Shown piece by piece: positions 3,018-24,518 of a stretch of 46,293 nt of DNA; the stretch's first letter is position 1, and each line of letters starts with the position of its first letter. The translations under genes were made by a program, and so were the position numbers. Source of the DNA: a virus. Lineage: Duplodnaviria > Heunggongvirae > Uroviricota > Caudoviricetes. Below the pieces are notes generated by a model. That model made no database searches. It was given only the letters and a program-made list of their open reading frames with translations, and was not told the origin of the DNA. The stretch lies in the IMG/VR virus record IMGVR_UViG_2872164251_000001; one strand, written 5' to 3'.

Positions 3018-3908
3018 TCAGGCTGCCAGATCATCGTTTCCGATGGAAGCATAATAAGCTTTTTCTGCTTCTGCCGGAGGGATGTGGCCCAGCCTTTCCA
3101 GCAATCGTCGATTGTTATACCAGTCCACCCACGTTAGTGTGGCCAGTTCCACTTCTGCACGGTTTTTCCAGCTCTTACGGTGTATTACCTCCGCTTTGTA
3201 AAGACCATTGATGCTCTCCGCCATCGCGTTGTCATACGAGTCGCCTGTACTTCCTGTTGATGCCAGTAATCCGGCTTCCTTAAGCCGCTGTGTGTAGGCC
3301 AGCGATACATACTGAGAACCTTTATCACTGTGATGGACCGTGCCGGACGGTCGACGGGCCCATAACGCCTGCTCCAGTGCATCCAGCACGAATGTCGTTT
3401 CCATGGACGATGAGACCCGCCACCCCACGATGTATCCGGCAAACACATCAATGATGAACGCCACATAGACGAAGCCCCTCCATGTGCTGACGTAAGTAAA
3501 ATCAGCCACCCACAGCTGGTCAGGTCGTTCTGCCACGAACTGACGGTTTACGCGGTCGCCTGCGGCAACGGCTTTCCGGCTGATGGTCGTACGGACCTTT
3601 TTACCCCGGAGAACACCGGCAAGTCCCATAACCGCCATGAGACGTGCCACAGTGCATCTGGCCACTCTGATACCTTCCCGTAACAACTGACGCCAGACTT
3701 TACGCACACCGTATACCTTGTGATTTTCATCGTATACGCGCTGTATCTCTTTCTTCAGCCAGTCATCGCGCTGCGCACGGGCACTGCGTTTATCCGGATG
3801 ATGTCGCTGTTGCTGACAGTGGTAATACGTTGACGGGGCAATATGCAGTTCGCTGCATAGCGGTCCGACCCCGTACTGCTCACGCAGCTTATCCAGCAGT
3901 GGCATCAT
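3018..3908 (-). CDS. IS629-like OrfB transposase
   Basis: 296-aa IS3-family DDE transposase ORF overlapping OrfA. Confidence 0.8.
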
Positions 3909-4645: not shown

Positions 4646-4814
4646 CCCATCCCAATCCCTTCAATACCAGAAAGAAAGCGTCGAGCGAGCTTTAACGTGC
4701 GCTAATTGCGGTCAGAAGCTGCATGTGCTGGAAGTTCACGTGTGTGAGCACTGCTGCGCAGAACTGATGAGCGATCCGAATAGCTCAATGTACGAGGAAG
4801 AAGACGATGAATGA
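4638..4814 (+). CDS. ninF: NinF-like small Cys-rich protein
   Basis: ESVERALTCANCGQKLHVLEVHVCEHCCAELMSDPNSS matches lambda NinF as I recall it; start overlaps upstream stop. Confidence 0.55.
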   Translation: MLSPSQSLQYQKESVERALTCANCGQKLHVLEVHVCEHCCAELMSDPNSSMYEEEDDE

Positions 4815-5529
4815 GTTAATAAATGGCAATGCCATCAAAATGACAAGCATTGAAATCGCTGAGTTGGTTGGTAAGCGTCATGACAATGTGAAACGTACCA
4901 TCGAAACGCTGGCTAAAAATGGTGTTATCCGGCTTCCTCAAATTGAGGATTGTGGAAGAATCAATGGGTTAGGCTTAAATCAAAGTTTTTGTGTGTATGT
5001 GTTCGAAGGCGAACAAGGAAAGCGAGACAGTATTGTCGTTGTAGCCCAGTTGTCGCCGGAATTCACCGCTCGCCTTGTTGACCGCTGGCGAGAGCTTGAA
5101 GAAGCTGCGGTTAATATCCCCAAAACGCTACCGGAAGCGTTGCGCCTTGCTGCTGATCTTGCTGAGCAGAAAATGCAACTGGAAAACCAGCTCGCAATTG
5201 CCGCACCTAAAGTTGAGTTTGCCGATCGCGTTGGCGAGGCCAGCGGAATTTTGATTGGAAACTTTGCAAAGGTTGTTGGAATTGGTCCAAACAAACTGTT
5301 TGCGTGGATGCGCGATCACAAAATCCTTATTGCTTCAGGTTCCCGGCGCAATGTGCCAATGCAGGAATATATGGATCGCGGCTATTTCACAGTGAAAGAA
5401 ACAGCGGTCAACACAAATCACGGAATACAGATATCGTTCACCACAAAAATCACCGGGCGTGGTCAACAGTGGCTGACCAGAAAGCTGCTCGATAATGGAA
5501 TGCTGAAAGTAACAGGGGAGGCTGCTTAA
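4807..5529 (+). CDS. Rha-family regulatory protein with C-terminal ANT/KilAC antirepressor domain
   Basis: MTSIEIAELVGKRHDNVKRTIETL Rha-like N-terminus; ADRVGEASGILIGNFAKVVGIG ANT-like C-terminus. Confidence 0.7.
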   Translation: MNELINGNAIKMTSIEIAELVGKRHDNVKRTIETLAKNGVIRLPQIEDCGRINGLGLNQSFCVYVFEGEQGKRDSIVVVAQLSPEFTARLVDRWRELEEAAVNIPKTLPEALRLAADLAEQKMQLENQLAIAAPKVEFADRVGEASGILIGNFAKVVGIGPNKLFAWMRDHKILIASGSRRNVPMQEYMDRGYFTVKETAVNTNHGIQISFTTKITGRGQQWLTRKLLDNGMLKVTGEAA

Positions 5530-5819
5530 TGGCTAATCTACGCAAAGAAGCACGCGGCAGAGAATGCCAGGTACGTATTTACGGCGTATGCAATGGTAAT
5601 CCTGAAACTACAGTTCTGGCACATTACCGGATGGCTGGAATTTGCGGAACGGGAATGAAGCCTGACGACCTGATCGGCGCATGGGCTTGTAGCGCGTGTC
5701 ACGATGAAATCGACCGACGCACCCATAATCTCGACAACAAAGACGCCAGACTTTACCACCTCGAAGGCGTGATCAGGACGCAGGCGATACTGCTGAAGGA
5801 GGGGAAGATTAAGTCATGA
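5529..5819 (+). CDS. DUF1364 (YbcO-like) putative nuclease
   Basis: ARGRECQVRIYGVCNGNPETTVLAHYR...ACSACHDEIDRRTH; position upstream of rusA. Confidence 0.7.
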   Translation: MANLRKEARGRECQVRIYGVCNGNPETTVLAHYRMAGICGTGMKPDDLIGAWACSACHDEIDRRTHNLDNKDARLYHLEGVIRTQAILLKEGKIKS

Positions 5820-6178
5820 GCGAATATCAGTTTGTGCTTCCATACCCGCCGTCGGTGAACACCTACTGGCGAAGACGGGGAAACCAATACTACATCAGCG
5901 ATAAAGGCCAGAAATACCGAAAAGAAGTTCAGCAAATAATCCTCCAACTCAAGTTAGACATTTTCACCAAATCACGACTCCGCATCAAAGTCATCGCAGA
6001 CGTTCCAGACTCCCGCCGCCGCGACCTCGATAACATCCTGAAAGGTTTACTCGACTCCCTTATCCACGCCGGATTTGCGGAAGACGACGAGCAATTCGAT
6101 GACATTCGCGTAATTCGTGGTGTGAAAGTACCAGGCGGAAGGCTTGGAATAAAAATCACCGAACTGGAGAACGTATGA
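5816..6178 (+). CDS. rusA: RusA Holliday-junction resolvase
   Basis: LPYPPSVNTYWRRRG...RRRDLDNILKGLLDSL...GGRLGIKITE. Confidence 0.85.
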   Translation: MSEYQFVLPYPPSVNTYWRRRGNQYYISDKGQKYRKEVQQIILQLKLDIFTKSRLRIKVIADVPDSRRRDLDNILKGLLDSLIHAGFAEDDEQFDDIRVIRGVKVPGGRLGIKITELENV

Positions 6179-6363
6179 ACGCCACAATTCAAACGATACC
6201 AGAGCTTCTTATCCAGACACGAGGCAATCAGACCGAAGTGGCGAGGATGCTTTCCTGCGCAAGAGGAACAGTGCTCAAGTACAACCGAGACAGCAAAGGC
6301 GAGCGTCACGTAATAGTTAACGGCGTCCTGATGGTCAAACAGGGCAAGAGGGGAAGACGATGA
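6175..6363 (+). CDS. ninH: NinH-like protein
   Basis: IPELLIQTRGNQTEVARMLSCARGTVLKY...IVNGVLMV resembles lambda NinH. Confidence 0.65.
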   Translation: MNATIQTIPELLIQTRGNQTEVARMLSCARGTVLKYNRDSKGERHVIVNGVLMVKQGKRGRR

Positions 6364-6983
6364 GACTCGAAAGCGTAGCTAAATTTCATTCGCCAAAAAG
6401 CCCGATGATGAGCGACTCACCACGGGCCACGGCTTCTGACTCTCTTTCCGGTACTGATGTGATGGCTGCTATGGGGATGGCGCAATCACAAGCCGGATTC
6501 GGAATGGCTGCATTCTGTGGTAAGCACGAACTCAGCCAGAACGACAAACAAAAGGCTATCAACTATCTGATGCAATTTGCACACAAGGTATCGGGGAAAT
6601 ACCGTGGCGTTGCAAAGCTTGAAGGAAATACTAAGGCAAAGGTACTGCAAGTGCTCGCAACATTCGCTTATGCGGATTATTGCCGTAGTGCCGCGACGCC
6701 GGGCGCAAGATGCAGAGATTGCCACGGTACAGGCCGTGCGGTTGATATTGCCAAAACAGAGCTGTGGGGGAGAGTTGTTGAGAAAGAGTGTGGAAGATGC
6801 AAAGGCGTCGGCTATTCAAGGATGCCAGCAAGCGCCGCATATCGCGCTGTAACGATGCTAATCCCCAACCTTACCCAACCCACATGGTCACGCACTGTTA
6901 AGCCGCTGTATGACGCTCTGGTGGTGCAATGCCACAAGGAAGAGTCAATCGCAGACAATATTTTGAATGCGGTCACACGTTAG
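6360..6983 (+). CDS. Q: Late antiterminator Q, lambda type
   Basis: 207 aa, MRLESVAKFHSPKSPMMSDSPRATASDS... with Cys4 zinc motif CRDCHGTG...CGRCKG; followed by lambda-like PR'. Confidence 0.85.
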   Translation: MRLESVAKFHSPKSPMMSDSPRATASDSLSGTDVMAAMGMAQSQAGFGMAAFCGKHELSQNDKQKAINYLMQFAHKVSGKYRGVAKLEGNTKAKVLQVLATFAYADYCRSAATPGARCRDCHGTGRAVDIAKTELWGRVVEKECGRCKGVGYSRMPASAAYRAVTMLIPNLTQPTWSRTVKPLYDALVVQCHKEESIADNILNAVTR

Positions 6984-7025
6984 CAGCATGATTGCCACGG
7001 ATGGCAACATATTAACGGCATGATA

Positions 7026-7054
7026 TTGACTTATTGAATAAAGTTGGGTAAATT
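7026..7054 (+). promoter_or_regulatory. PR' late promoter (-35 TTGACT, 17-bp spacer, -10 TAAATT) with qut region
   Basis: TTGACTtattgaataaagttgggTAAATT immediately downstream of Q. Confidence 0.6.
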
Positions 7055-7060
7055 TGACCC

Positions 7061-7253
7061 AACGATGGGTTAATTCGCTCGTTGTGGTAGTGAGATGAAA
7101 AGAGGCGGCGCTTACTACCGATTCCGCCTAGTTGGTCACTTCGACGTATCGTCTGGAACTCCAACCATCGCAGGCTGAGAGGTCTGCAAAATGCAATCCC
7201 GAAACAGTTCGCAGGTAATAGTTAGAGCCTGCATAACGGTTTCGGGATTTTTT
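7061..7253 (+). ncRNA. Short terminated late leader transcript (lambda 6S-RNA-like)
   Basis: From predicted PR' start to tR' hairpin; about 190 nt; ends inferred not measured. Confidence 0.5.
7196..7253 (+). terminator. tR' rho-independent terminator
   Basis: 10-bp arms ATCCCGAAAC / GTTTCGGGAT followed by TTTTTT. Confidence 0.6.
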
Positions 7254-7694
7254 ATATCTGCACAACAGGTAAGAGCATTGAGCCGATAATCGTGAAGAGT
7301 CGGCGAGCCTGGTTAGCCAGTGCTCTTTCCGTTGTGGTGAATGCACAGGCTGATGTGTAAGGGCAAGAATCTTTCGCTGGATTCGGTGTGGCCACGTAGC
7401 CAGCTGTAGGCAGTTGCAGCAAACCGGAGATCAGCACCGGTCGCCACAATCCAAACTGAGCCGTAGCCACTGACTATCCTGAATTCATCAGTGATAGTTA
7501 CGCTGCGGCCTTCTACACATGATCTTCGTGAAAGTGGGCGGCATGAGGTTGCGCTAACAACCTAATGCCGTTTTGCCCGTGCATATCGGTCACGAACAAA
7601 TCTGATTACTAAACACAGTAGCCTGGATTTGTTCTATCAGTAATCGACCTTATTCCTAATTAAATAGAGCAAATCCCCTTATTGGGGGTAAGAC

Positions 7695-8018
7695 ATGAAG
7701 ATGCCAGAAAAACATGACCTGTTAGCCGCCATTCTCGCGGCAAAGGAACAAGGCATCGGGGCAATCCTTGCGTTTGCAATGGCGTACCTTCGCGGCAGAT
7801 ATAATGGCGGTGCGTTTACAAAAACAGTAATCGACGCAACGATGTGCGCCATCATCGCCTGGTTCATTCGTGACCTTCTCGACTTCGCCGGACTAAGTAG
7901 CAATCTCGCTTATATAACGAGCGTGTTCATCGGCTACATCGGTACTGACTCGATTGGTTCGCTTATCAAACGCTTCGCTGCTAAAAAAGCCGGAGTAGAA
8001 GATGGTGGAAATCAATAA
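7695..8018 (+). CDS. S: Holin S, lambda type (dual-start MKM)
   Basis: [43 protein letters not shown]... Confidence 0.9.
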
Positions 8019-8478
8019 TCAACGTAAGGCGTTCCTCGATATGCTGGCGTGGTCAGAGGGAACTGATAACGGACGTCAGAAAACCAGAAATCATGGTTAT
8101 GACGTCATTGTAGGCGGAGAGCTATTTACTGATTACTCCGATCATCCTCGCAAACTTGTCACACTAAACCCAAAACTAAAATCAACAGCCGCCGGACGTT
8201 ATCAGCTTCTTTCCCGTTGGTGGGATGCTTACCGTAAGCAGCTTGGCCTGAAAGACTTCTCTCCGAAAAGCCAGGACGCTGTGGCACTGCAACAGATTAA
8301 AGAACGTGGCGCTTTACCGATGATTGATCGCGGTGATATTCGTCAGGCAATTGACCGTTGCAGCAATATCTGGGCTTCACTTCCGGGCGCTGGTTATGGT
8401 CAGTTCGAGCATAAGGCTGACAGCCTGATTGCAAAATTCAAAGAAGCAGGCGGAACGGTCAGAGAGATTGATGTATGA
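8002..8478 (+). CDS. R: Endolysin R (lytic transglycosylase)
   Basis: [52 protein letters not shown]. Confidence 0.9.
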
Positions 8479-8942
8479 GCAGAGTCACCGCGATTATCTC
8501 CGCTCTGGTTATCTGCATCATCGTCTGCCTGTCATGGGCGGTTAATCATTACCGTGATAACGCCATGACCTACAAAGAGCAGCGAGATAAAAAAGTCAGT
8601 GAGCTGAAGCAGGCGACCGCCACCATTACTGACATGCAGCAACGCCAGCGTGCTGCTGATGCACTCGATGCTAAATACACGAAGGAGTTAGCTGATGCGA
8701 AAGCTGAAAATGATGCTCTTCGGCGCAAGCTTGATAATGGTGGCAGGGTGCTCGTCAAAGGAAAATGCCCTGTGCCATCCTCAGCCGAAACCTCCAGCGC
8801 CTCCGGCATGGGCAATGATGCCACCGTCGAACTCTCTCCAGTTGCTGGACGAAACGTTCTCGGTATCCGGGACGGAATTATCCGCGACCAAACAGCACTG
8901 AGAACGCTTCAGGAATACATCAGGACGCAATGCCTTCGATGA
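8475..8942 (+). CDS. Rz: Rz i-spanin
   Basis: N-terminal [32 protein letters not shown] then coiled coil; central region differs from lambda Rz as I recall it. Confidence 0.8.
8695..8901 (+). CDS. Rz1: Rz1 o-spanin lipoprotein embedded in Rz (+1 frame)
   Basis: [19 protein letters not shown] lipobox then Pro-rich segment. Confidence 0.7.
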
Positions 8943-10234: not shown

Positions 10235-11403
<1,169 letters not shown>

Positions 11404-11958: not shown

Positions 11959-12651
11959 ATGTTATATGCATTTAAGCTGGGCAGAAAACTGCGCGGCGAG
12001 GAACCTTATTGCCCTGAAAAAGGCGGGAAAGGTGGCAGCTCTGATAAAAGCGCAAAGTATGCAGCAGAAGCTCAGAAGTATGCCGCAGACCTGCAAAATC
12101 AGCAGTGGCAGACGATCATGAAAAACCTTGCTCCGTTCACGCCTCTTGCGGAGCAGTATGTTAACCAGCTTCAGAACCTTTCCAGTTTAGAAGGTCAGGG
12201 GCAGGCACTTAATCAGTATTACAACTCTCAGCAGTATAAAGACCTTGCAGGTCAGGCTCGTTACCAGAGTCTTGCTGCTGCGGAGGCGACGGGTGGACTT
12301 GGTTCGACAGCCACAAGCAATCAACTGGCTACGATCGCGCCGACACTCGGTCAGTCTTGGTTATCAAACCAGATGAGCAATTACAACAATCTGGCAAACG
12401 TTGGGCTTGGTGCGCTGCAAGGTCAGGCAAACGCCGGGCAGACATACGCCAACAACATGAGCAGCATTGCACAGCAAAGCGCAGCTCTTGCCGCTGCTAA
12501 TGCCAACAAACCATCAAGTCTTCAGACAGCAATTAGTGGCGGAACGTCTGGTGCGATTGCCGGTGCAGGTCTTGCCAGCCTTTTGGGAACATCAACACCT
12601 TGGGGCGCTGGCATTGGTGCTGGTATCGGATTGCTTGGCTCGTTGTTTTAA
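11959..12651 (+). CDS. P22/Sf6 gp7-like ejection (injection) protein
   Basis: MLYAFKLGRKLRGEEPYCPEKGGKGGSSDKSAKYAAEAQKYAADLQNQQ..., Gln/Asn/Ala-rich, C-terminal glycine-zipper GAIAGAGLASLLG...GAGIGAGIGLLGSLF; recognised from memory of P22 gp7. Confidence 0.55.
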   Translation: MLYAFKLGRKLRGEEPYCPEKGGKGGSSDKSAKYAAEAQKYAADLQNQQWQTIMKNLAPFTPLAEQYVNQLQNLSSLEGQGQALNQYYNSQQYKDLAGQARYQSLAAAEATGGLGSTATSNQLATIAPTLGQSWLSNQMSNYNNLANVGLGALQGQANAGQTYANNMSSIAQQSAALAAANANKPSSLQTAISGGTSGAIAGAGLASLLGTSTPWGAGIGAGIGLLGSLF

Positions 12652-12729: not shown

Positions 12730-13233
12730 TTACTGATAGTGTTTTATGTTCAGATAATGCCCGATGACCTTGTCATGCAGCTCCACCGATTTTGAGAACG
12801 ACAGTGACTTCCGTCCCAGCCTTGCCAGATGTTGTCTCAGATTCAGATTATGTCGCTCAATGCGCTGAGTGTAACGCTTGCTGATAACGTGCAGCTTTCC
12901 CTTCAGGCGTGATTCATACAGCGGCCAGCCATCCGTCATCCATACCACGACCTCAAAGGCCGACAGCAGGCTCAGAAGACGCTCCAGTGTGGCCAGAGTG
13001 CGTTCACCGAAGACGTGCGCCACAACCGTCCTCCGTATCCTGTCATACGCGTAAAACAGCCAGCGCTGACGTGATTTAGCACCGACGTAGCCCCAATGTT
13101 CGTCCATTTCAGCGCAGACAATCACATCACTGCCCGGTTGTATGCGCGAGGTTACCGACTGCGGCCTGAGTTTTTTAAGTGACGTAAAACCGTGTTGAGG
13201 CCAACGCCCATAATGCGTGCGCTGGCGCGACAT
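12730..13233 (-). CDS. insB: IS1 InsB (expressed as InsAB' by frameshift)
   Basis: 167-aa ORF typical of IS1 InsB. Confidence 0.85.
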
Positions 13234-16261: not shown

Positions 16262-16936
16262 TTAGGCTTTGATTTTGTATCTTCTTGGTTTTCCTGAGAA
16301 AATCACTGTACCAATTATAGAGCAATTACCGTTGATCTTAATGTAAGGCTCAGGCCAGTTTGGGTTTAACGCTTTGAGATAACGCTGTGTCCCATCTTCT
16401 ATCAACCTTTTGAAGGTGGTTTCGCCTGTATCGTGCATCAATGCAATAACGTCGTCACCGTGGCAGGCAGGTACTTCAGGATCGACAAAAATCATGTCTC
16501 CCGGGCGGTACTCATCAATCATTGAATCACCTATCACCCGCAAGATATAAGTCATTTCCCCACAGGGTACAGGGCAGGGATACGTTTCTGCTGTGCTCAA
16601 ATCAACCTCAGAATATCCAACTTCTTTCCATGCTCCGGCCTGTACCCATGATATGACAGGGACTAATGTGATTTGTTTATTAGTGATTGAAACATCAGGT
16701 TTTTTTGTGATGTTCGTTGTCTGGTGTTCTTGATCGAGCCATCCGACAGGCAGGTCGAAACATTTTTCGATGTGTCGTGCCATGCTGTCACCGATATTTT
16801 TAGTAGCACCATCTCCCATAAACCTGCTGGTCTGGGTTGGCTCGCGATCAATCATAGTGGCAAAGGAAGAATTCCCGCCAACACCATCTCTCAGTTTTCT
16901 GGCGTTAGACCGCCGGATGTCATGGATTGTTTTCAT
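16262..16936 (-). CDS. cI: CI-type prophage repressor (HTH plus S24 LexA-like peptidase domain)
   Basis: Ala-Gly cleavage site (VQAGAW), Ser nucleophile in VIGDSM, divergent from a Cro-like gene. Confidence 0.85.
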   Translation of the reverse strand: MKTIHDIRRSNARKLRDGVGGNSSFATMIDREPTQTSRFMGDGATKNIGDSMARHIEKCFDLPVGWLDQEHQTTNITKKPDVSITNKQITLVPVISWVQAGAWKEVGYSEVDLSTAETYPCPVPCGEMTYILRVIGDSMIDEYRPGDMIFVDPEVPACHGDDVIALMHDTGETTFKRLIEDGTQRYLKALNPNWPEPYIKINGNCSIIGTVIFSGKPRRYKIKA

Positions 16937-17026: not shown

Positions 17027-17227
17027 ATGAAAGCGTATTGGGACTCTTTAACCAAAGAACAGCAGGGCGAGTTGGCCGGAAAAGTTGGCTCAACACCTGG
17101 CTACTTACGGCTGGTTTTCAATGGCTATAAAAAAGCCAGTTTTGTGCTGGCTAAAAAACTTGAGCAATGCACGTCAGGTGCAATTACGAAATCTGACTTA
17201 AGACCGGATATCTATCCGAAAGATTAG
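17027..17227 (+). CDS. cro: Cro-like HTH regulator
   Basis: 66 aa, GGAGG RBS, divergent from cI across operators. Confidence 0.65.
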   Translation: MKAYWDSLTKEQQGELAGKVGSTPGYLRLVFNGYKKASFVLAKKLEQCTSGAITKSDLRPDIYPKD

Positions 17228-17258
17228 CAGAACACTTTCAATTTTTAACCACAGAACG

Positions 17259-17822
17259 ATGAGGCTAACCGTGGGTAAGCATCACTGGAAAATAGAAAAA
17301 CAGCCTGAGTGGTACGTGAAAGCTGTCAGAAAAACTATCGCGGCGTTGCCGGGTGGTTACGCTGAAGCGGCTGACTGGCTCGATGTAACAGAAAACGCTT
17401 TATTCAACCGCCTTCGTGCAGATGGCGATCAGATTTTCCCGCTGGGATGGGCAATGGTTTTACAGCGTGCTGGTGGCACTCACTTCATTGCTGATGCTGT
17501 GGCGCAGTCTGCAAATGGCGTCTTTGTGTCTCTTCCTGACGTCGAGGATGTGGACAACGCCGATATCAACCAACGCCTGCTGGAAGTCATTGAACAGATC
17601 GGCAGTTATTCAAAACAGATTCGTTCAGCAATTGAAGACGGTGTAGTGGAACCGCATGAGAAGACAGCAATTAACGATGAGCAGTACCTCTCAATTTCGA
17701 AGCTGCAGGAGCATGCAGCACTGGTCTACAAAATCTTTTGCGTTTCAGAAAGTAGTGACGCCCGCGAGTGTGCAGCTCCGGGCGCCGTGGCATGTCGTGA
17801 CTGTGGAGAAACTAACGCATGA
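17259..17822 (+). CDS. CII-like phage regulatory protein (uncertain family)
   Basis: 187-aa ORF in the cII position between cro and the replication gene. Confidence 0.35.
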
Positions 17823-18175
17823 ACAGTTTAACAACACACTACCGTCGCTCGCAACTGATTGCGCTTCCTGTACCGGGTGGAAAAGCGAAGGTGGAGTATT
17901 GCTATGCAGTAAATGTACCAGGTGACAGGGAAATTGTAACCCACAGCTTTGCAGAGTGGGCTGTGGGTGATTTCAACCGGCAGAAGGAGACAGTCCTTTG
18001 CGACAAGTTAACCGCTGGTTCAAAGAGCACTACGGAGTGCCCGTCAGAGTCATTCGTTGGGAGCCGGAAACACAACGTGTTATCTACCTCCGCGAAGGCT
18101 ATGAGCATGAGTGCTTCAGCCCGCTCGAACAGTTTCGTCGTAAATTCAGGGAAATAGAGGTCGGTCATGAGCACT
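17819..18175 (+). pseudogene. Small early gene with apparent frameshift (N-terminus in one frame, C-terminus in the -1 frame)
   Basis: Frame [32 protein letters not shown]... becomes Ser-rich junk after about 18000 while -1 frame reads [54 protein letters not shown] and ends overlapping the next ATG. Confidence 0.35.
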
Positions 18176-19108
18176 AAATTAACCGGCTATGTATGGGATG
18201 GTTGCGCTGCATCAGGCATGAAATTATCCAGCGTGGCAATTATGGCCCGCCTGGCTGATTTCAGTAATGACGAAGGTGTGTGCTGGCCATCAATTGAAAC
18301 CATTGCCCGCCAGATTGGCGCGGGAATGAGTACCGTCAGAACGGCTATCGCACGGCTGGAAGCAGAAGGCTGGTTAACGCGTAAGGCGCGTCGCCAGGGT
18401 AACCGCAATGCGTCGAATGTTTATCAGCTTAACGTTGCGAAGCTTCAGGCAGCGGCATTTTCTCAACTGTCAGATTCTGACCCGTCAAAATCTGACGCAT
18501 CAAAATCTGACCCGTCAAAATTTGATGCGTCGAAATCTGGCAAAAAAGCGGGTTTTCACCCGTCAGAATCTGGCGGGGATCCGTCAGTAAAATCAAAACA
18601 TGATCCGTCAGATAAAAAAACTTCTCGTCCGGACGCTTCGCAACCGGACACGCAGACGGCTGAACAGGAGTTTTTAACTCGCCATCCTGATGCGGTTGTA
18701 TTCAGCCCTAAAAAGCGCCAGTGGGGAACGCAGGATGATTTGACCTGCGCACAGTGGCTCTGGAAAAAAATCATCGCCCTGTACGAGCAGGCCGCCGAAT
18801 GTGACGGCGAGGTGGTTCGTCCCAAAGAACCGAACTGGACAGCCTGGGCAAACGAAATTCGCCTGATGTGTGTGCAGGATGGTCGTACTCATAAACAAAT
18901 CTGCGAGATGTACAGCCGCGTCAGTCGCGATCCGTTCTGGTGCCGTAACGTGCTCAGCCCGTCGAAGCTGCGGGAAAAATGGGATGAGCTTTCCCTGCGC
19001 TTATCGCCGTCCGTCAGCACGTACACCGAAAAACGCGAAGACCCGTACTTCAAAGCTAGTTACGACAACGTGGACTACAGCCAAATCCCGGCAGGATTCA
19101 GGGGGTGA
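18167..19108 (+). CDS. Replication initiator (lambda O-like) containing origin iterons
   Basis: N-terminal winged-HTH, central repeat-encoded SKSD segment, C-terminal conserved domain; position after cro/cII. Confidence 0.65.
   Translation: MSTKLTGYVWDGCAASGMKLSSVAIMARLADFSNDEGVCWPSIETIARQIGAGMSTVRTAIARLEAEGWLTRKARRQGNRNASNVYQLNVAKLQAAAFSQLSDSDPSKSDASKSDPSKFDASKSGKKAGFHPSESGGDPSVKSKHDPSDKKTSRPDASQPDTQTAEQEFLTRHPDAVVFSPKKRQWGTQDDLTCAQWLWKKIIALYEQAAECDGEVVRPKEPNWTAWANEIRLMCVQDGRTHKQICEMYSRVSRDPFWCRNVLSPSKLREKWDELSLRLSPSVSTYTEKREDPYFKASYDNVDYSQIPAGFRG
18468..18615 (+). repeat. Iteron array (putative ori) inside the initiator gene
   Basis: About 7 tandem copies of CCGTCA(A/G)AATCTGA-like 15-bp units. 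Confidence 0.55.
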
Positions 19109-19599
19109 GCATGAGTCTTTTGAATGACGTTCAGAAATTCATTGAAGCCCATCGGGGCTGTACTTCCGGAGATATTGCGGATGCTTTTGCCGGTTACTCA
19201 CGGCAGCGCGTTCTGCAGTCAGCAAGCAAGTTACGTCAGAGTGGGCGTGTGGCTCACCGTTGTGAAGGAGATACACGCAGACATTTCCCGCGCCTGACTG
19301 AGAGAGCGCAGGAACCGGAACCACAACCAGTTCGTGAAACCAGACCTGTGCGCAATTTCTATGTCGGCACTAACGATCCCCGTGTGATTTTGTGCCTGAC
19401 CCGCCAGGCGGAAGAACTGGAGTCCAGGGGCTTATACCGTCGTGCTGCAACCGTGTGGATGGCGGCATTCCGTGAAAGCCACTCCCAGCCAGAACGAAAC
19501 AATTTTCTGGCGCGTCGTGAGCGGTGCTTACGGAAAAGCAGCAAGCGCGCTGCATCGGGTGAAGAGTGGTATCTGTCAGGGAATTACGTGGGGGCTTAA
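19105..19599 (+). CDS. YfdN-like hypothetical protein
   Basis: 164-aa ORF translationally coupled to upstream and downstream genes. Confidence 0.4.
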   Translation: MSMSLLNDVQKFIEAHRGCTSGDIADAFAGYSRQRVLQSASKLRQSGRVAHRCEGDTRRHFPRLTERAQEPEPQPVRETRPVRNFYVGTNDPRVILCLTRQAEELESRGLYRRAATVWMAAFRESHSQPERNNFLARRERCLRKSSKRAASGEEWYLSGNYVGA

Positions 19600-20252
19600 T
19601 GAGTAATAAATATTGCCAGGCGCTGGTGGAACTGCGGAACAAACCAGCCCATGAACTGAAGGAAGTGGGCGATCAGTGGCGCACGCCGGACAACATTTTC
19701 TGGGGAATTAACACCCTGTTTGGCCCGTTTGTTCTGGATCTGTTCACTGACGGTGATAACGCCAAATGTGCCGCGTATTACACGGCGGAAGACAACGCGC
19801 TGGCGCATGACTGGTCAGAACGTCTTGCGGAGCTTAAAGGTGCTGCCTTTGGTAATCCCCCATACAGCCGCGCCAGTCAGCATGAGGGGCAATACATCAC
19901 CGGCATGCGTTACATCATGAAACATGCCAGTGCCATGCGTGATAAGGGCGGGCGCTATGTTTTCCTGATCAAAGCTGCCACCAGCGAAGTGTGGTGGCCG
20001 GAAGATGCAGATCATATTGCTTTTATTCGCGGGCGTATTGGTTTTGAACTGCCTGTCTGGTTTATCCCGAAAGACGAGAAGCAGGTACTGACAGGAGCTT
20101 TTTTCGCTGGTGCTATTGCTGTTTTTGACAAGACCTGGAAGGGACCGGCAATCAGCTACATCGGGCGCGATGAACTTGAGGCATGTGGTGAGGCGTTTCT
20201 GGCGCAGGTTCGCCAGCAGGCGGAAAAACTGGTCAGGGAGATGGCGGCATGA
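19599..20252 (+). CDS. Phage DNA N6-adenine methyltransferase (Dam-like)
   Basis: GNPPYS motif; TAATG overlap with upstream gene. Confidence 0.75.
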   Translation: MSNKYCQALVELRNKPAHELKEVGDQWRTPDNIFWGINTLFGPFVLDLFTDGDNAKCAAYYTAEDNALAHDWSERLAELKGAAFGNPPYSRASQHEGQYITGMRYIMKHASAMRDKGGRYVFLIKAATSEVWWPEDADHIAFIRGRIGFELPVWFIPKDEKQVLTGAFFAGAIAVFDKTWKGPAISYIGRDELEACGEAFLAQVRQQAEKLVREMAA

Positions 20253-20575
20253 CGACGTTAACTCAATGCCAGCAGCAGGTGCTGGATATGCTGATTTCTT
20301 ATCAGAAAGAACGTGGCTTCCCGCCAACCAATCAGGAGGTGGCAACCATGCTGGGATACCGTTCGGTGAATGCAGCGGTGGAGCATCTTCGCGCACTGGA
20401 GAAAAAAGGCGTCATCACGATAAAGCGTGGCGTGGCCCGGGGGATAACGCTTCATACCGCGGTGAAGGACGACGACAGCGAGGCGGTCGGGATTATCCGC
20501 GCACTGCTTGCCGGTGAGGAAAACGCAAGGCTGCGTGCAACCCACTGGTTACATGAGAGGGACCTGAAAGTATGA
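20249..20575 (+). CDS. LexA N-terminal DNA-binding-domain protein lacking the peptidase domain
   Basis: MTTLTQCQQQVLDMLISYQKERGFPPTNQEVATMLGYRSVNAAVEHLRALEKKGVITIKRGVARGITL parallels the LexA winged-HTH; ATGA overlaps on both sides. Confidence 0.6.
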   Translation: MTTLTQCQQQVLDMLISYQKERGFPPTNQEVATMLGYRSVNAAVEHLRALEKKGVITIKRGVARGITLHTAVKDDDSEAVGIIRALLAGEENARLRATHWLHERDLKV

Positions 20576-20961
20576 AGCTGATCCTGCCTTTTCCGCCCAG
20601 CGTGAACACGTACTGGCGACACCCCAACAAAGGGGCGTTTGCTGGTAAGAGCCTGATAAGCGCGGCGGGGCGAAAATTCCAGAGCGCGGCGTGCGCAGCA
20701 ATAGTTGAGCAGTTACGTCGTCTGCCGAAACCAACGTCGGCACCTGCTTCAGTGGAGATCGTGTTGTTTCCTCCGGATAACCGGATCCGCGATCTGGACA
20801 ACTATAACAAGGCGCTGTTTGACGCCCTGACCCACGCGGGTGTGTGGGAAGACGACAGTCAGGTGAAAAGAATGCTGGTGGAGTGGGGGCCGGTTATCCC
20901 GGAAGGGAAGGTCGAGATCACTATCAATAAGTACGAGAAAACGGCGGGTGCAGCCGCCTGA
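20572..20961 (+). CDS. rusA: RusA Holliday-junction resolvase (second copy)
   Basis: LPFPPSVNTYWRH...NRIRDLDNYNKALFDALT. Confidence 0.8.
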   Translation: MKLILPFPPSVNTYWRHPNKGAFAGKSLISAAGRKFQSAACAAIVEQLRRLPKPTSAPASVEIVLFPPDNRIRDLDNYNKALFDALTHAGVWEDDSQVKRMLVEWGPVIPEGKVEITINKYEKTAGAAA

Positions 20962-20980
20962 TTAAGAGGAGAAACGAAGT

Positions 20981-21778
20981 ATGAATAATCTGATGGTCAT
21001 TGATGGTATTGAAGTTCGTCGTGATGCTTATGGGCGTTACAGCCTGAACGATCTGCACAGGGCTGCCGGTTCTCAGGATAAGCATAAGCCTGCATTCTGG
21101 CTCCGCAATGAGCAAACCGAACGTTTAATAAGCGAGTTGCAGATTTGCAACTCGGTCAATATAGAGCCAGTTAACGTTAGTCGTGGCGGAAATAACCAGG
21201 GGACGTATGTCTGCAAAGAACTGGTGTATGCCTATGCAATGTGGATCAGCCCGTCATTCCATCTGAAGGTGATCCGTACTTTCGATATGGTAACCAGCGC
21301 ACCGGAAAAATTATCCGGGCAGGCTGCTGACAAGATGCAGGCTGGCGTGATTCTGCTGGACTTTATGCGGCGGGAGTTAAACCTGTCTAACTCATCTGTG
21401 CTTGGGGCCTGTCAGAAACTCCAGGAGGCTGTTGGCTTACCGAATCTGGCACCACGCTATGCCATTGATGCTCCTGCTGACGCGCCTGATGGCTCAAGTC
21501 GCCCTACGCTGTCGCTGAGTGCACTGCTGAAACAGTATGGTATCCGCCTGACAGCTAATCAGGCATATCACCAGATGGCGAAGCTGGGGATCGTTGAACA
21601 ACGCGAACGATACAGCCGTACCGCGATTAACAACATCAAAAAATTCTGGTCGCTGACGGCGAAAGGCTGCATGTTCGGCAAGAACATTACCAGTCCTGCA
21701 AATCCGCGCGAGACGCAGCCGCATTTCTTCGAATCCCGATTCCCTGAGCTGTTAAAGCTGCTCGATACCGTTCATTGA
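20981..21778 (+). CDS. KilA-N domain antirepressor-like protein
   Basis: MVIDGIEVRRDAYGRYSLNDLH...GTYVCKELVYAYAMWISPSFHLKVIRTF. Confidence 0.7.
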   Translation: MNNLMVIDGIEVRRDAYGRYSLNDLHRAAGSQDKHKPAFWLRNEQTERLISELQICNSVNIEPVNVSRGGNNQGTYVCKELVYAYAMWISPSFHLKVIRTFDMVTSAPEKLSGQAADKMQAGVILLDFMRRELNLSNSSVLGACQKLQEAVGLPNLAPRYAIDAPADAPDGSSRPTLSLSALLKQYGIRLTANQAYHQMAKLGIVEQRERYSRTAINNIKKFWSLTAKGCMFGKNITSPANPRETQPHFFESRFPELLKLLDTVH

Positions 21779-21779
21779 G

Positions 21780-22775
21780 GTGACCGTGAGAGCACTACTG
21801 ACCCCTGAAATTGCCCCGCGTATGGGGATCGTATTGTTCAGACCAGGTTCAGAGCTGATGCCCCTGTTTATGCAGGGGCGTGTACTGCTGGAGCCTGAGC
21901 CGGAACGTTATTCATCTTTCGCCAGTGGTGCCGTTCCCGCGGCATCACAACCGCTGGCGGATGATCCTGCTGTTCGGGCCGTGTTCCGCAATGAGGCAGT
22001 GATCCGTCGTGCTGGTGGCGTGGAATGTCTTGAAAGCTGGCTACTTCGTGAAAAAGGCTGCCAGTGGCCTCATTCCGACTGGCACAGCGAGAACATGACC
22101 ACAATGCGACACGCTCCGGGCGCAATCCGTCTGTGCTGGCACTGTGATAACCAGCTGCGCGATCAGTTCACGGAACGGCTGGAATCAATGGCAACGGATA
22201 ACTGTGCCCGCTGGGTGTTGTCTGTTGTGCGTCGGGATCTCGGTTTTGATGATAGTCACGTTGTGACAATGCCGGAACTGTGCTGGTGGCTGATTCGTAA
22301 TGACCTGGCGGATGCCTTACCGGAAAGTGCAGCCCGTAAGGCACTGAGATTACCAAAGCCTGTTGTGCCGTCTGTCACCCGGGAAAGTGACCTTGTGCCT
22401 TCGGTTCCTGCCACCAGCATCATCCAAGATAAGGCAAAAAAGGTGCTGGCGCTGAAAGTGGATCCGGAGTCGCCGGAGTCTTTTATGTTACGCCCAAAAC
22501 GTCGCCGCTGGGTTAATGAGAAGTACACGCGCTGGGTTAAGACACAGCCGTGTGCATGTTGTGGAAAGCCCGCTGATGATCCCCACCACCTGATAGGCCA
22601 CGGTCAGGGGGGAATGGGTACAAAAGCGCATGACCTCTTTGTGTTGCCTTTGTGCAGAAAGCATCACGACGAGCTGCATGCGGATACCGTGGCATTTGAA
22701 GAGAAGTATGGCTCCCAGCTGGAGCTGATATTTCGTTTTATCGATCGTGCGCTGGCAATTGGCGTGCTGGCCTGA
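21780..22775 (+). CDS. DUF968-like nin-region protein with C-terminal HNH-like Cys/His motif
   Basis: C-terminal CACCGKPADDPHHL...LPLCRKHHDELH. Confidence 0.5.
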   Translation: MTVRALLTPEIAPRMGIVLFRPGSELMPLFMQGRVLLEPEPERYSSFASGAVPAASQPLADDPAVRAVFRNEAVIRRAGGVECLESWLLREKGCQWPHSDWHSENMTTMRHAPGAIRLCWHCDNQLRDQFTERLESMATDNCARWVLSVVRRDLGFDDSHVVTMPELCWWLIRNDLADALPESAARKALRLPKPVVPSVTRESDLVPSVPATSIIQDKAKKVLALKVDPESPESFMLRPKRRRWVNEKYTRWVKTQPCACCGKPADDPHHLIGHGQGGMGTKAHDLFVLPLCRKHHDELHADTVAFEEKYGSQLELIFRFIDRALAIGVLA

Positions 22776-22789
22776 TTTGGTGGAGAAAG

Positions 22790-23158
22790 TTGATGCGTGA
22801 TATTCAGATGGTTCTTGAGCGTTGGGGAGCATGGGCGGCGAGTGATAGTTCAGGCGTTGACTATTCACCTATAGCTGCTGGGTTTAAGGGACTTCTTCCC
22901 TATACCAGCAAGAAACGCTTGGCTTGTTCGGATAGTGATGCATTAATTATTGAAGGTTGTCTTGCTCGTCTAAAGCAAAAAAGACCTTATGAGCATTCGC
23001 TTCTTGTGGCACATTATTTATACAGAATATCCAAGCGTAAGATTGCAAAGGCGCGTGGAAAGGATGAGAAATTGATACGTATAGAAATACAGCTAGCCGA
23101 AGGATTTATTGATGGCTGCCTTTCCATGCTAGATCTAACATTAGATTTGGACGTTTAA
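22790..23158 (+). CDS. Late antiterminator Q (QuuD/phi82-like small Q)
   Basis: MRDIQMVLERWGAWAA... N-terminus as in DLP12 QuuD from memory. Confidence 0.7.
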   Translation: MMRDIQMVLERWGAWAASDSSGVDYSPIAAGFKGLLPYTSKKRLACSDSDALIIEGCLARLKQKRPYEHSLLVAHYLYRISKRKIAKARGKDEKLIRIEIQLAEGFIDGCLSMLDLTLDLDV

Positions 23159-23186
23159 TAATACGCCCCATGCAGGGGCGTATTAT
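23159..23186. terminator. Bidirectional hairpin between Q and the antisense KAP NTPase gene
   Basis: ATACGCCCC atgca GGGGCGTAT palindrome. Confidence 0.5.
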
Positions 23187-24518
23187 TTACTGGATGAATG
23201 ACATTTGATTAATATATTTTATCAATAACTCTCTGGGTGTAGTACTCCAAAAATTTAGGTGTTCATAATCAGTATAAACAGTGGTGAATTTTTTAAGTTC
23301 TTCATCACTTTTAGGGGCAAATCGCTCATTAAGAGTAATACTGTCTTTAATTATTCCGAAGAATACAATAGATATTTCAGGAATTTGCGATCTTCTCTCA
23401 TAAGAATAAGGTATTTCTTTTATGTTAAGCAGATCTGCTAAATGAGATATAGATTCTGCGGTAATTTCTTGTTTTAGTTTTTCCTTGTCACCAAAGCAAT
23501 GTATGAAGACAGCTACGACAAAGATCTTATTTATTAAAGGATCACTGCTTTTGTACTCATCGTCGTTTAATAGTTGAAAAATGTTAAGATTGCGTGAAAA
23601 AGTTTGTGTTTCACGTAAGGATAAGTTGGTTCGTTGAATTAAATCACGGATAAATCTACCAGATAACCTATTAATTTCATTTAATGATTTTGTCTTGTCT
23701 ACAAGGTAATTCCAATATATAACAGATGTTTTACATACGACGTGACCATTTATTAAACATGTGTCTGGAAGCGTGATGGTATATTTTATAAACTTGTCAA
23801 GATACTTTTGTGAGTTAATACTATAACCATAAATATGATTTATCGATGCTTTTAATTGTTCTGTGTTTGTAACTAAAATAAAAAAGACATTATTGATGTC
23901 AAAAATGTGTTTTATTGTTTCAATGACATTTGTTGAAAAACTCGGCTTACATCGGTCTAATTCATCAATTATAATTACTATCTTTTGACTTTCTGAAATG
24001 CTTTCGATGCAAGATTTAAGTGAATTTATGTTTTTCTCTGATTCCATATGGTCTTCAAGCAAATTTTCAATAGTCCCATCTATTGCTGCATTGCTTGCTT
24101 TCTTCATCGCATCTTGGAATTCTTCGGAAACTTCACTAGCCTCCTGTCGTAAAAACCAACCTGCACCAGCTTTTAGTACCGTTTTTAAACCAAAGCGAAT
24201 TGCAGGAAGAGATCTCTTAATGAAGTGTTGTTTTTCTTCCTCAGGTAAAATGCTGGCAATTGCAGAGGTTATGAGAAGTAATGGAGATTCTGCATGATCC
24301 CCTTTAAAGGCATCAATATAAACAACTTTAGATTCAGTTTCTTGCTCAATAATGAGATTTTTCAGTTTGATACTAAATTCTGTTTTCCCTGTTCCCCATG
24401 CGCCGTCTATTACCAGTGGTGAAATGTCTGCCTCTGGTTTTAGCAACTTGATGATATTTTCAGCGATGTTTCTGCGTTGGAACTCGTCACGTTCAGTGAA
24501 AGATAGTGTATCTAACAT
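23187..24518 (-). CDS. KAP-family P-loop NTPase (PifA-like), AT-rich moron
   Basis: Walker A GAWGTGKT, Walker B IIIDELDRC; 443 aa; much lower GC than flanks by eye; opposite strand to late operon. Confidence 0.75.
   Translation of the reverse strand: MLDTLSFTERDEFQRRNIAENIIKLLKPEADISPLVIDGAWGTGKTEFSIKLKNLIIEQETESKVVYIDAFKGDHAESPLLLITSAIASILPEEEKQHFIKRSLPAIRFGLKTVLKAGAGWFLRQEASEVSEEFQDAMKKASNAAIDGTIENLLEDHMESEKNINSLKSCIESISESQKIVIIIDELDRCKPSFSTNVIETIKHIFDINNVFFILVTNTEQLKASINHIYGYSINSQKYLDKFIKYTITLPDTCLINGHVVCKTSVIYWNYLVDKTKSLNEINRLSGRFIRDLIQRTNLSLRETQTFSRNLNIFQLLNDDEYKSSDPLINKIFVVAVFIHCFGDKEKLKQEITAESISHLADLLNIKEIPYSYERRSQIPEISIVFFGIIKDSITLNERFAPKSDEELKKFTTVYTDYEHLNFWSTTPRELLIKYINQMSFIQ

Follow-up and report, generated by a model that had tools for sequence, protein, structure and literature searches.

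A stand-alone LexA-type domain between Dam and RusA

The window analyzed in this work, a stretch of 46,293 nt from a virus of the class Caudoviricetes (IMG/VR record IMGVR_UViG_2872164251_000001), carries in its rightward early operon a small gene whose product, of 108 amino acids (aa), is a LexA DNA-binding domain (LexA-DBD) with a short C-terminal tail (Table 1). The original prediction, made from the DNA sequence alone, had described this open reading frame (ORF) as a stand-alone LexA-type winged helix-turn-helix (wHTH) without an S24 domain, and had suggested a profile search, which supported this description at the same coordinates. The Pfam model LexA_DNA_bind (PF01726) was matched over its whole length (1–65/65, E 2.9e-19), and no match to Peptidase_S24 (PF00717) was found in the protein with Pfam, the chain ending at residue 108 with RusA directly after. 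The NCBIfam model for complete LexA (TIGR00498) aligned only at its positions 1–91 of 203, with 70.6 bits against a cutoff of 110.95. The full-length protein matched PHROG 362 (E 3.8e-59, residues 1–108 against profile positions 1–106/106), a family that carries the annotation label of transcriptional repressor.

The ORF is a real coding gene under strong purifying selection, which is tightest on the wHTH: over 46 distinct alleles, the ratio of nonsynonymous to synonymous polymorphism (pN/pS) was 0.08 for the whole gene, 0.02 for the wHTH and 0.22 for the tail. A Shine-Dalgarno sequence, GGGAG, is located 8 nt 5′ of the start codon. The gene overlaps both its neighbors by the sequence ATGA, as predicted, with its ATG (20249–20251) overlapping the TGA of dam (20250–20252) and its TGA (20573–20575) overlapping the ATG of rusA (20572–20574). 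Translational coupling had been deduced from these overlaps; they do exist, but 4-nt overlaps chain all the genes from 18167 to 20961, and coupling is thus a property of the operon and not of this gene in particular.

Table 1. Features of the window around the LexA-DBD gene.
Feature	Coordinates	Strand	Evidence
Stand-alone LexA-DBD gene (PHROG 362 family), 108 aa	20249..20575	+	ORF, PF01726, PHROG 362, pN/pS
Winged helix-turn-helix, residues 1–68	20249..20452	+	AlphaFold2 pLDDT ~80–86; Foldseek to 3JSO
Recognition helix, residues 39–52, SVNAAVEHLRALEK	20363..20404	+	Alignments
C-terminal two-helix tail, residues 75–87 and 93–102	20471..20554	+	AlphaFold2 pLDDT ~88; family alignment
Phage N6-adenine DNA methyltransferase Dam	19599..20252	+	PF05869 E 1.9e-45; TIGR01712 253 bits
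RusA Holliday-junction resolvase	20572..20961	+	PF05866 E 5.9e-15; PHROG 34
CI-type prophage repressor, S24 peptidase domain	16262..16936	-	PF00717 E 1.5e-26
Rightward early operon	17028..23158	+	Pfam assignments; promoter/terminator scan; same block in SfII, SfIV and other phages

Structure of the protein and conservation of DNA contacts

The structure of the protein was modeled as a monomer with AlphaFold2, with a mean predicted local distance difference test score (pLDDT) of 80. The wHTH comprises helices at residues 6–22, 28–35 and 40–52 and a beta wing at residues 56–68, and could be superposed with Foldseek on the DNA-bound LexA of Escherichia coli (3JSO) with a root-mean-square deviation of 1.5 Å over 68 residues and 50 % identity; the identity between the 108-aa protein and the N-terminal domain of E. 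coli LexA (1LEA/3JSO) is also of ca. 50 %. Five residues of helix 3 of E. coli LexA were reported to contact DNA, S39, N41, A42, E44 and E45 (PMC3091678), and the equivalent positions in the 108-aa protein are S39, N41, A42, V44 and E45, four of the five being as in LexA. Relatives with only 40 % identity have S, N, A, A and E at these same positions.

A linker (residues 69–75), predicted to be disordered, joins the wHTH to the two-helix tail. The tail is conserved among family members at 38–66 % identity, each helix having a hydrophobic stripe, and residues A97 and L101 are invariant in the family alignment. The tail is specific to this family and takes the place of the S24 protease/dimerization domain. 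LexA dimerizes through its S24 domain; since this domain is missing here, the tail is a putative dimerization module.

In hidden Markov model (HMM) alignments, the match to LexA reaches residue 90 of the protein, and the sequence LLAGE of the tail is placed opposite the cleavage site of LexA, VAAGE. We considered whether the Ala-Gly pair (residues 88–89) could be a cleavage site and rejected this, because the residues are not conserved: other family members contain LLANE, LLVGE or PGA(R). The region is also predicted to be helical and not an extended strand. With no catalytic domain and an A88-G89 pair that is not kept in the family, the protein is likely non-cleavable, in agreement with the original prediction.

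Related loci are embedded in phage SOS circuitry

Family members with 38–50 % identity occupy the same slot in the nin region of other phages and prophages, following the replication/methylase genes and preceding RusA/DUF968/Q (window, mEp390, L082–L087 and L091–L124), and they adopt two arrangements that we designated type A and type B. Type A comprises the window, phage mEp390 and loci L083–L087 and L118–L123, with the order methyltransferase or replication gene, LexA-DBD, RusA, and no SOS box upstream. The methylases in these loci belong to different families, Dam (PF05869), C5 (PF00145) and D12. Ten of 80 near-identical type A loci have an SOS box right after RusA, before a variant KilA-N gene, and in mEp390 there are, elsewhere in the genome, dinI and umuD-like morons with SOS boxes.

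Type B comprises 30 loci (L082, L086, L091–L117 and L124) that encode relatives of protein P0139, ca. 40 % identical to the window protein; P0139 is also found in Klebsiella phages. In these loci, a terminator and a sigma-70-like promoter precede an operon with the layout [dinI], phrog_1813, LexA-DBD, phrog_1212, [RusA], DUF968 and Q, where brackets indicate genes that are not always present, and a canonical SOS box overlaps or abuts the -10 element of the promoter. The exact consensus CTGT-N8-ACAG occurs at a distance of up to 1.3 kb upstream in 27/30 type B loci, against a chance expectation of about 0.02 per locus, and all 30 have upstream a match of at least 17.6 bits to a position weight matrix (PWM) for SOS boxes. 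The sequences flanking these promoters fall into at least five unrelated groups, and the only palindrome common to 10 of 11 sequence groups is the SOS box itself. In 19 of the type B loci, the operon begins with a gene for DinI (PF06183, E 1.2e-23); additionally, in eight of the 30 loci a second SOS box drives an adjacent gene whose 109-aa product is 62 % identical to the mEp390 protein annotated as UmuD-like. The LexA-DBD family is, therefore, repeatedly embedded in phage SOS circuitry. A search of viral contigs with P0218 as the query found no further related loci.

Several other characteristics of these loci were apparent. A Q-like antiterminator was detected downstream only in type B loci L082, L086, L091, L092, L094 and L117, and in these prophages host LexA would directly gate late-gene antitermination. 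Gene phrog_1813, without known function, is present in 30/30 type B loci, and a conserved hairpin is located between it and the start of the LexA-DBD gene (L113, ca. 2391–2435, and the equivalent place in all type B groups). This hairpin has the loop CCTGAACAA, shows compensatory changes in the stem (ATAGG/CCTAT, GCTGG/CCAGC and GTAGG/CCTGC) and is followed by the invariant sequence ACCTGCTGCGCCACGGAGA, which includes the ribosome-binding site; the element, which may be involved in translational control, is absent from the window. A perfect SOS box of 27 bits, TACTGTTTTTATATACAGTA, was also found inside the coding sequence of S24-type cI genes, in the region for the linker, in loci L034, L036 and L037 (ca. 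593–609) and L046, L052 and L071 (ca. 543–588). These prophages also carry a near-identical LexA-DBD gene, and the presence of the box suggests that host LexA may bind within their cI.

Operon context and neighboring features in the window

The repressor of this lambdoid prophage is of the SOS-cleavable type, as had been anticipated, since its Peptidase_S24 match is accompanied in the translation by the motifs QAG/AW and GDSM and by the Lys. On the other strand, the operon contains in this order cro, a cII-like gene (CP76) and the genes for a replication protein, a PerC-like protein, Dam, the LexA-DBD, RusA, KilA-N, DUF968/HNH and Q. The promoter/terminator scan revealed no promoter-like site directly 5′ of the LexA-DBD gene, which suggests that this is a delayed-early gene, made after loss of the repressor or on infection; removal of the repressor would then open the operon from which it is expressed.

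The search for operator-like palindromes near the gene retrieved only terminator-like hairpins and one odd palindrome. The latter, GAGTTGCAGATTTGCAACTC, is perfect, and is situated at positions 21134–21153, inside the KilA-N gene of the window. A near-identical sequence, GAGTTGCAGATTTGCAACTC-like but imperfect and matching on one strand, is found in L067 (4195–4214) and in 25 other loci, with one site per locus; sites of the L067 type lie in the 3′ end of RusA, just 5′ of the SOS-boxed KilA-N variant. This sequence may mark a module junction or be a binding site.

Directly 5′ of dam, and in the same chain of overlaps, there is a gene of the PerC family (PF06069, 19105–19599, + strand); PerC-like prophage proteins are known to regulate virulence loci of pathogenic E. 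coli. A gene for a 443-aa P-loop NTPase of the KAP family (PF07693, E 7e-70; 23187–24518, - strand) is situated between Q and the lysis genes and is bounded by a palindrome (23158–23186) similar to a strong bidirectional terminator. This gene resembles a moron, with a possible role in defense. The window also contains a second, remnant lambdoid late-early region (4807–8942), between the integrase and the early-left genes, with a Rha/ANT antirepressor, YbcO, a second RusA (5816..6178), a Q-type antiterminator (PF03589), a holin and Rz. This region is flanked by IS elements (three rve transposases and IS1) and by a gene similar to P22 gp7 (1040–1879, 3018–3908, 10564–11403, 12730–13233 and 11959–12651). 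The 17-mer CTGTGGCACTGCAACAG occurs at positions 8279 and 25422, because of which the lysis cassettes look like duplicates.

Distribution of the gene

Proteins with 96–100 % identity are encoded by phages SfII, SfV (orf42), SfIV, mEp460, cdtI and many Stx2a/Stx2c-converting phages, almost always in the slot Dam/LexA-DBD/RusA, and among 5426 complete E. coli genomes, 2233 (ca. 41 %) contain the gene. The gene is thus not new: the Prokaryotic Genome Annotation Pipeline (PGAP) annotates it as LexA family transcriptional regulator, and a comparative study of Stx phages mentions it only in a table (pham 237, pfam01726; PMC8136144). Our literature searches did not find any functional study or experimental data on the enterobacterial LexA-DBD family, and this kind of protein has one characterized precedent, gp6 of GIL01 (see below). 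Many further short LexA-DBD proteins, from diverse phages, are present in BFVD. Some metagenomic proteins, including P0130, P0131, P0148, P0150 and P0153, contain two tandem LexA_DNA_bind domains that resemble a single-chain dimer; in loci L088/L089, with tandem domains, the neighbor encodes a HATPase_c protein and the context does not look like that of a phage.

Comparison with known LexA-like proteins and SOS modulators

Tectivirus GIL01 of Bacillus thuringiensis encodes gp6, a truncated homolog of LexA that is 44 % identical to the N-terminal domain of the host LexA; it binds its own palindrome, GaCACAnnTGTGaC, at -43.5 of the late promoter, which it activates, and residue K38 is essential for binding (PMC6182141). 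We had also considered GIL01 gp1 as a precedent and rejected it, because gp1 is MerR-like and the relevant protein is gp6. Both gp6 and the window protein are borne by temperate phages, consist essentially of a LexA wHTH without S24 domain, have 44–50 % identity to the N-terminal domain of LexA from their own host and are products of an early operon after SOS induction, an operon that is directly repressed by LexA in GIL01 and in the relatives of the window gene. The differences are, however, substantial. Protein gp6 has 66 aa and no tail, whereas the window protein has a conserved two-helix tail of 40 aa; and gp6 has S, K, T, H and R at the five contact positions, while the window family keeps S, N, A, x and E. 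In this alignment, which included the LexA of B. subtilis, gp6 K38 corresponds to N41 of LexA, a position where the window protein has Asn41, as LexA does. Also, gp6 activates a late promoter, and the late genes of the window follow a Q antiterminator. A BLASTP comparison of gp6 with the window protein produced no alignment; as each one resembles its own host LexA, they are independent captures.

The window protein shares with host LexA (TIGR00498) the fold and the recognition helix, but differs in the lack of the S24 domain, the catalytic Ser-Lys dyad and a conserved Ala-Gly, in the replacement of Glu44 and in having its own C-terminal helices. The free N-terminal domain of LexA still binds SOS boxes and represses, and cells destroy this fragment through ClpXP (PMC10584840). 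The fragment left by autocleavage (residues 1–84) ends in VAA, which targets it to ClpXP; the window protein ends in LKV and would differ in this respect. Non-cleavable variants of LexA provide a further parallel, as LexA G94E of Staphylococcus aureus has been used to keep SOS boxes occupied despite activated RecA (RecA*) (PMC10584840). The effect proposed for the window protein is the same as that of such LexA(Ind-) mutants (LexA3, S. aureus LexA G94E), although these are point mutants of the full-length host protein and the window protein is a natural, phage-borne and domain-deleted protein expressed only during phage development. Finally, other phage-encoded functions are known to alter the SOS response of the host upon induction: AriS of Listeria phage phi10403S damps SOS (PMC9043618), GIL01 gp7 binds LexA (PMC6182141), and there are DinI-like proteins in prophages. 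Nevertheless, their folds and mechanisms are unrelated to those of the window protein, with AriS acting through its ANT/KilAC domain, gp7 on LexA and DinI on RecA, and none of them is a LexA-like DNA binder.

Possible role of the LexA-DBD protein

The original prediction saw in the protein a possible modulator of host SOS boxes or of prophage induction, and this is plausible. The explanation towards which we lean, tentatively and judging it somewhat short of probable, is that the protein acts as a RecA-insensitive surrogate of LexA that re-occupies SOS boxes after induction. It would be a small dimeric DNA-binding protein, with the two-helix tail replacing the protease/dimerization domain, transcribed from the rightward promoter and appearing only once the S24 repressor is cleaved upon SOS induction, or on infection. 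RecA* should not be able to inactivate it, because there is neither an S24 domain nor a conserved scissile bond, and the protein might perhaps also escape degradation by ClpXP, since its C-terminus lacks the VAA degron. Given that the base-contacting residues of LexA are kept, it could then re-occupy the CTGT-N8-ACAG boxes once host LexA is gone, and the SOS-box promoters would be shut again during phage growth. Its targets would include the SOS genes of the host and, in co-resident prophages and colicin plasmids, the genes gated by LexA; in the relatives, the SOS-box promoters of the phage itself would also be among them.

This explanation is consistent with the identity to LexA of four of the five contact residues, even in relatives with 40 % identity, whereas gp6 changed its own; with the precedents of the free N-terminal domain of LexA (PMC10584840) and of AriS as a phage protein that damps SOS (PMC9043618), which apply by analogy; and with the SOS-box operons into which the relatives are wired, together with DinI. 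A fuller version of this scenario, which we put forward with more reserve, is that the RecA-proof surrogate re-closes SOS boxes after induction and so shuts the SOS regulon of the host, as well as the switches that LexA gates in rival prophages and colicin plasmids, which would benefit the phage, and that in the relatives it acts as a negative feedback generating a pulse of the SOS-controlled operon for dinI, LexA-DBD and Q.

Several observations weigh against a role as a LexA surrogate. The first is the lack of any SOS box in the 46-kb window in exact, one-mismatch, PWM and variable-spacer scans: the exact CTGT-N8-ACAG is absent, its one-mismatch variants are at chance level (19 found, 15.6 expected), and the highest score with the PWM, a matrix built from 21 SOS boxes, is 11.5 bits, less than the mean maximum of 12.4 bits for shuffled sequence. 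Any SOS boxes read by the protein would therefore lie outside this prophage. The second are the contact residues themselves, because position 44 is Val, Ala, Thr or Phe across the family and never Glu, and position 40 is Val in the subgroup of the window, without Pro40; specificity or affinity may thus differ from those of LexA. The third is gp6, the only characterized truncated homolog of LexA from a phage, which binds a different site and activates transcription. Moreover, gp6 is made from an early promoter repressed by LexA (PMC6182141) and still binds another site, so the SOS-box wiring of the relatives alone is no proof of binding to SOS boxes.

These same observations are accommodated by a transcription factor specific to the phage and with an operator of its own, similar to gp6, in which the captured LexA fold was re-targeted to repress or activate phage genes in lytic growth, leaving the host SOS boxes untouched. 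We consider this doubtful. The behavior of gp6, the loss of Glu44 throughout the family and of Pro40 in the window subgroup, the absence of an SOS box in the window and, as a label, the name transcriptional repressor of PHROG 362 speak in its favor. However, the other four contacts are identical to those of LexA and changed in gp6, and neither the window nor the comparison across relatives yielded a candidate conserved palindrome besides the SOS box, which is a weak negative. Additionally, with the late genes under a Q antiterminator, an activator like gp6 is unneeded.

It is improbable that the protein is instead a DNA-binding accessory of the neighboring enzymes (methyltransferase, RusA, DUF968/HNH), for instance for targeting or restraining RusA or the methylase. 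The order methyltransferase, LexA-DBD, RusA persists among proteins with only 38–50 % identity and with methylases from different families, the genes are joined by overlapping codons, and DUF968 is within ca. 1 kb downstream in most of the loci whose downstream sequence was examined. On the other hand, overlapping codons are generic in this operon, and synteny in the lambdoid nin region is conserved regardless of function. RusA is missing from 24/30 type B loci, which generally also lack an adjacent methylase; mEp390 and SfIV have no Dam; and the second RusA of the window has YbcO upstream, not a LexA-DBD. These cases rule out an obligatory partnership with RusA or Dam. A functional meaning of the coupling to both genes is likewise not supported, since there are relatives without Dam, RusA or both and a RusA in the window without such a partner.

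We regard as very improbable an action by protein contact, with the tail docking as a pseudo-substrate into the S24 domains of LexA, CI or UmuD, or being cleaved in trans. The HMM alignment to LexA up to residue 90, with LLAGE opposite VAAGE, would agree with this, but the Ala-Gly pair is not kept (LLANE, LLVGE, PGAR), the region is predicted to form a helix and not an extended strand, and the tightest constraint is on the DNA-binding helix. Lastly, although the protein resembles the first 90 residues of LexA, a decaying and functionless fragment of a captured lexA can practically be discounted, being effectively refuted by the selection on 46 alleles (pN/pS 0.08), by the conservation of the family, with a tail of its own and in a fixed genomic slot, at identities as low as 38 %, and by the presence of the gene in viable phages (SfII, SfV and mEp460, among others) and in 41 % of the complete genomes of E. 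coli.

Biological significance

A gene present in ca. 41 % of the complete genomes of E. coli, and in Shiga-toxin phages, keeps the reading head of LexA. If SOS boxes are indeed bound by its product, nearly half of the sequenced strains of E. coli, many of them Shiga-toxin producers, would carry a phage gene able to override the SOS response from within the induced cell, which would bear on toxin release, on antibiotic-induced mutagenesis and on the competition among co-resident prophages, and would be a natural counterpart to the engineered lexA3 phages that potentiate antibiotics. If it binds an operator of its own instead, it would join GIL01 gp6 as a second example, of independent origin, in which a phage has re-tooled the LexA fold.

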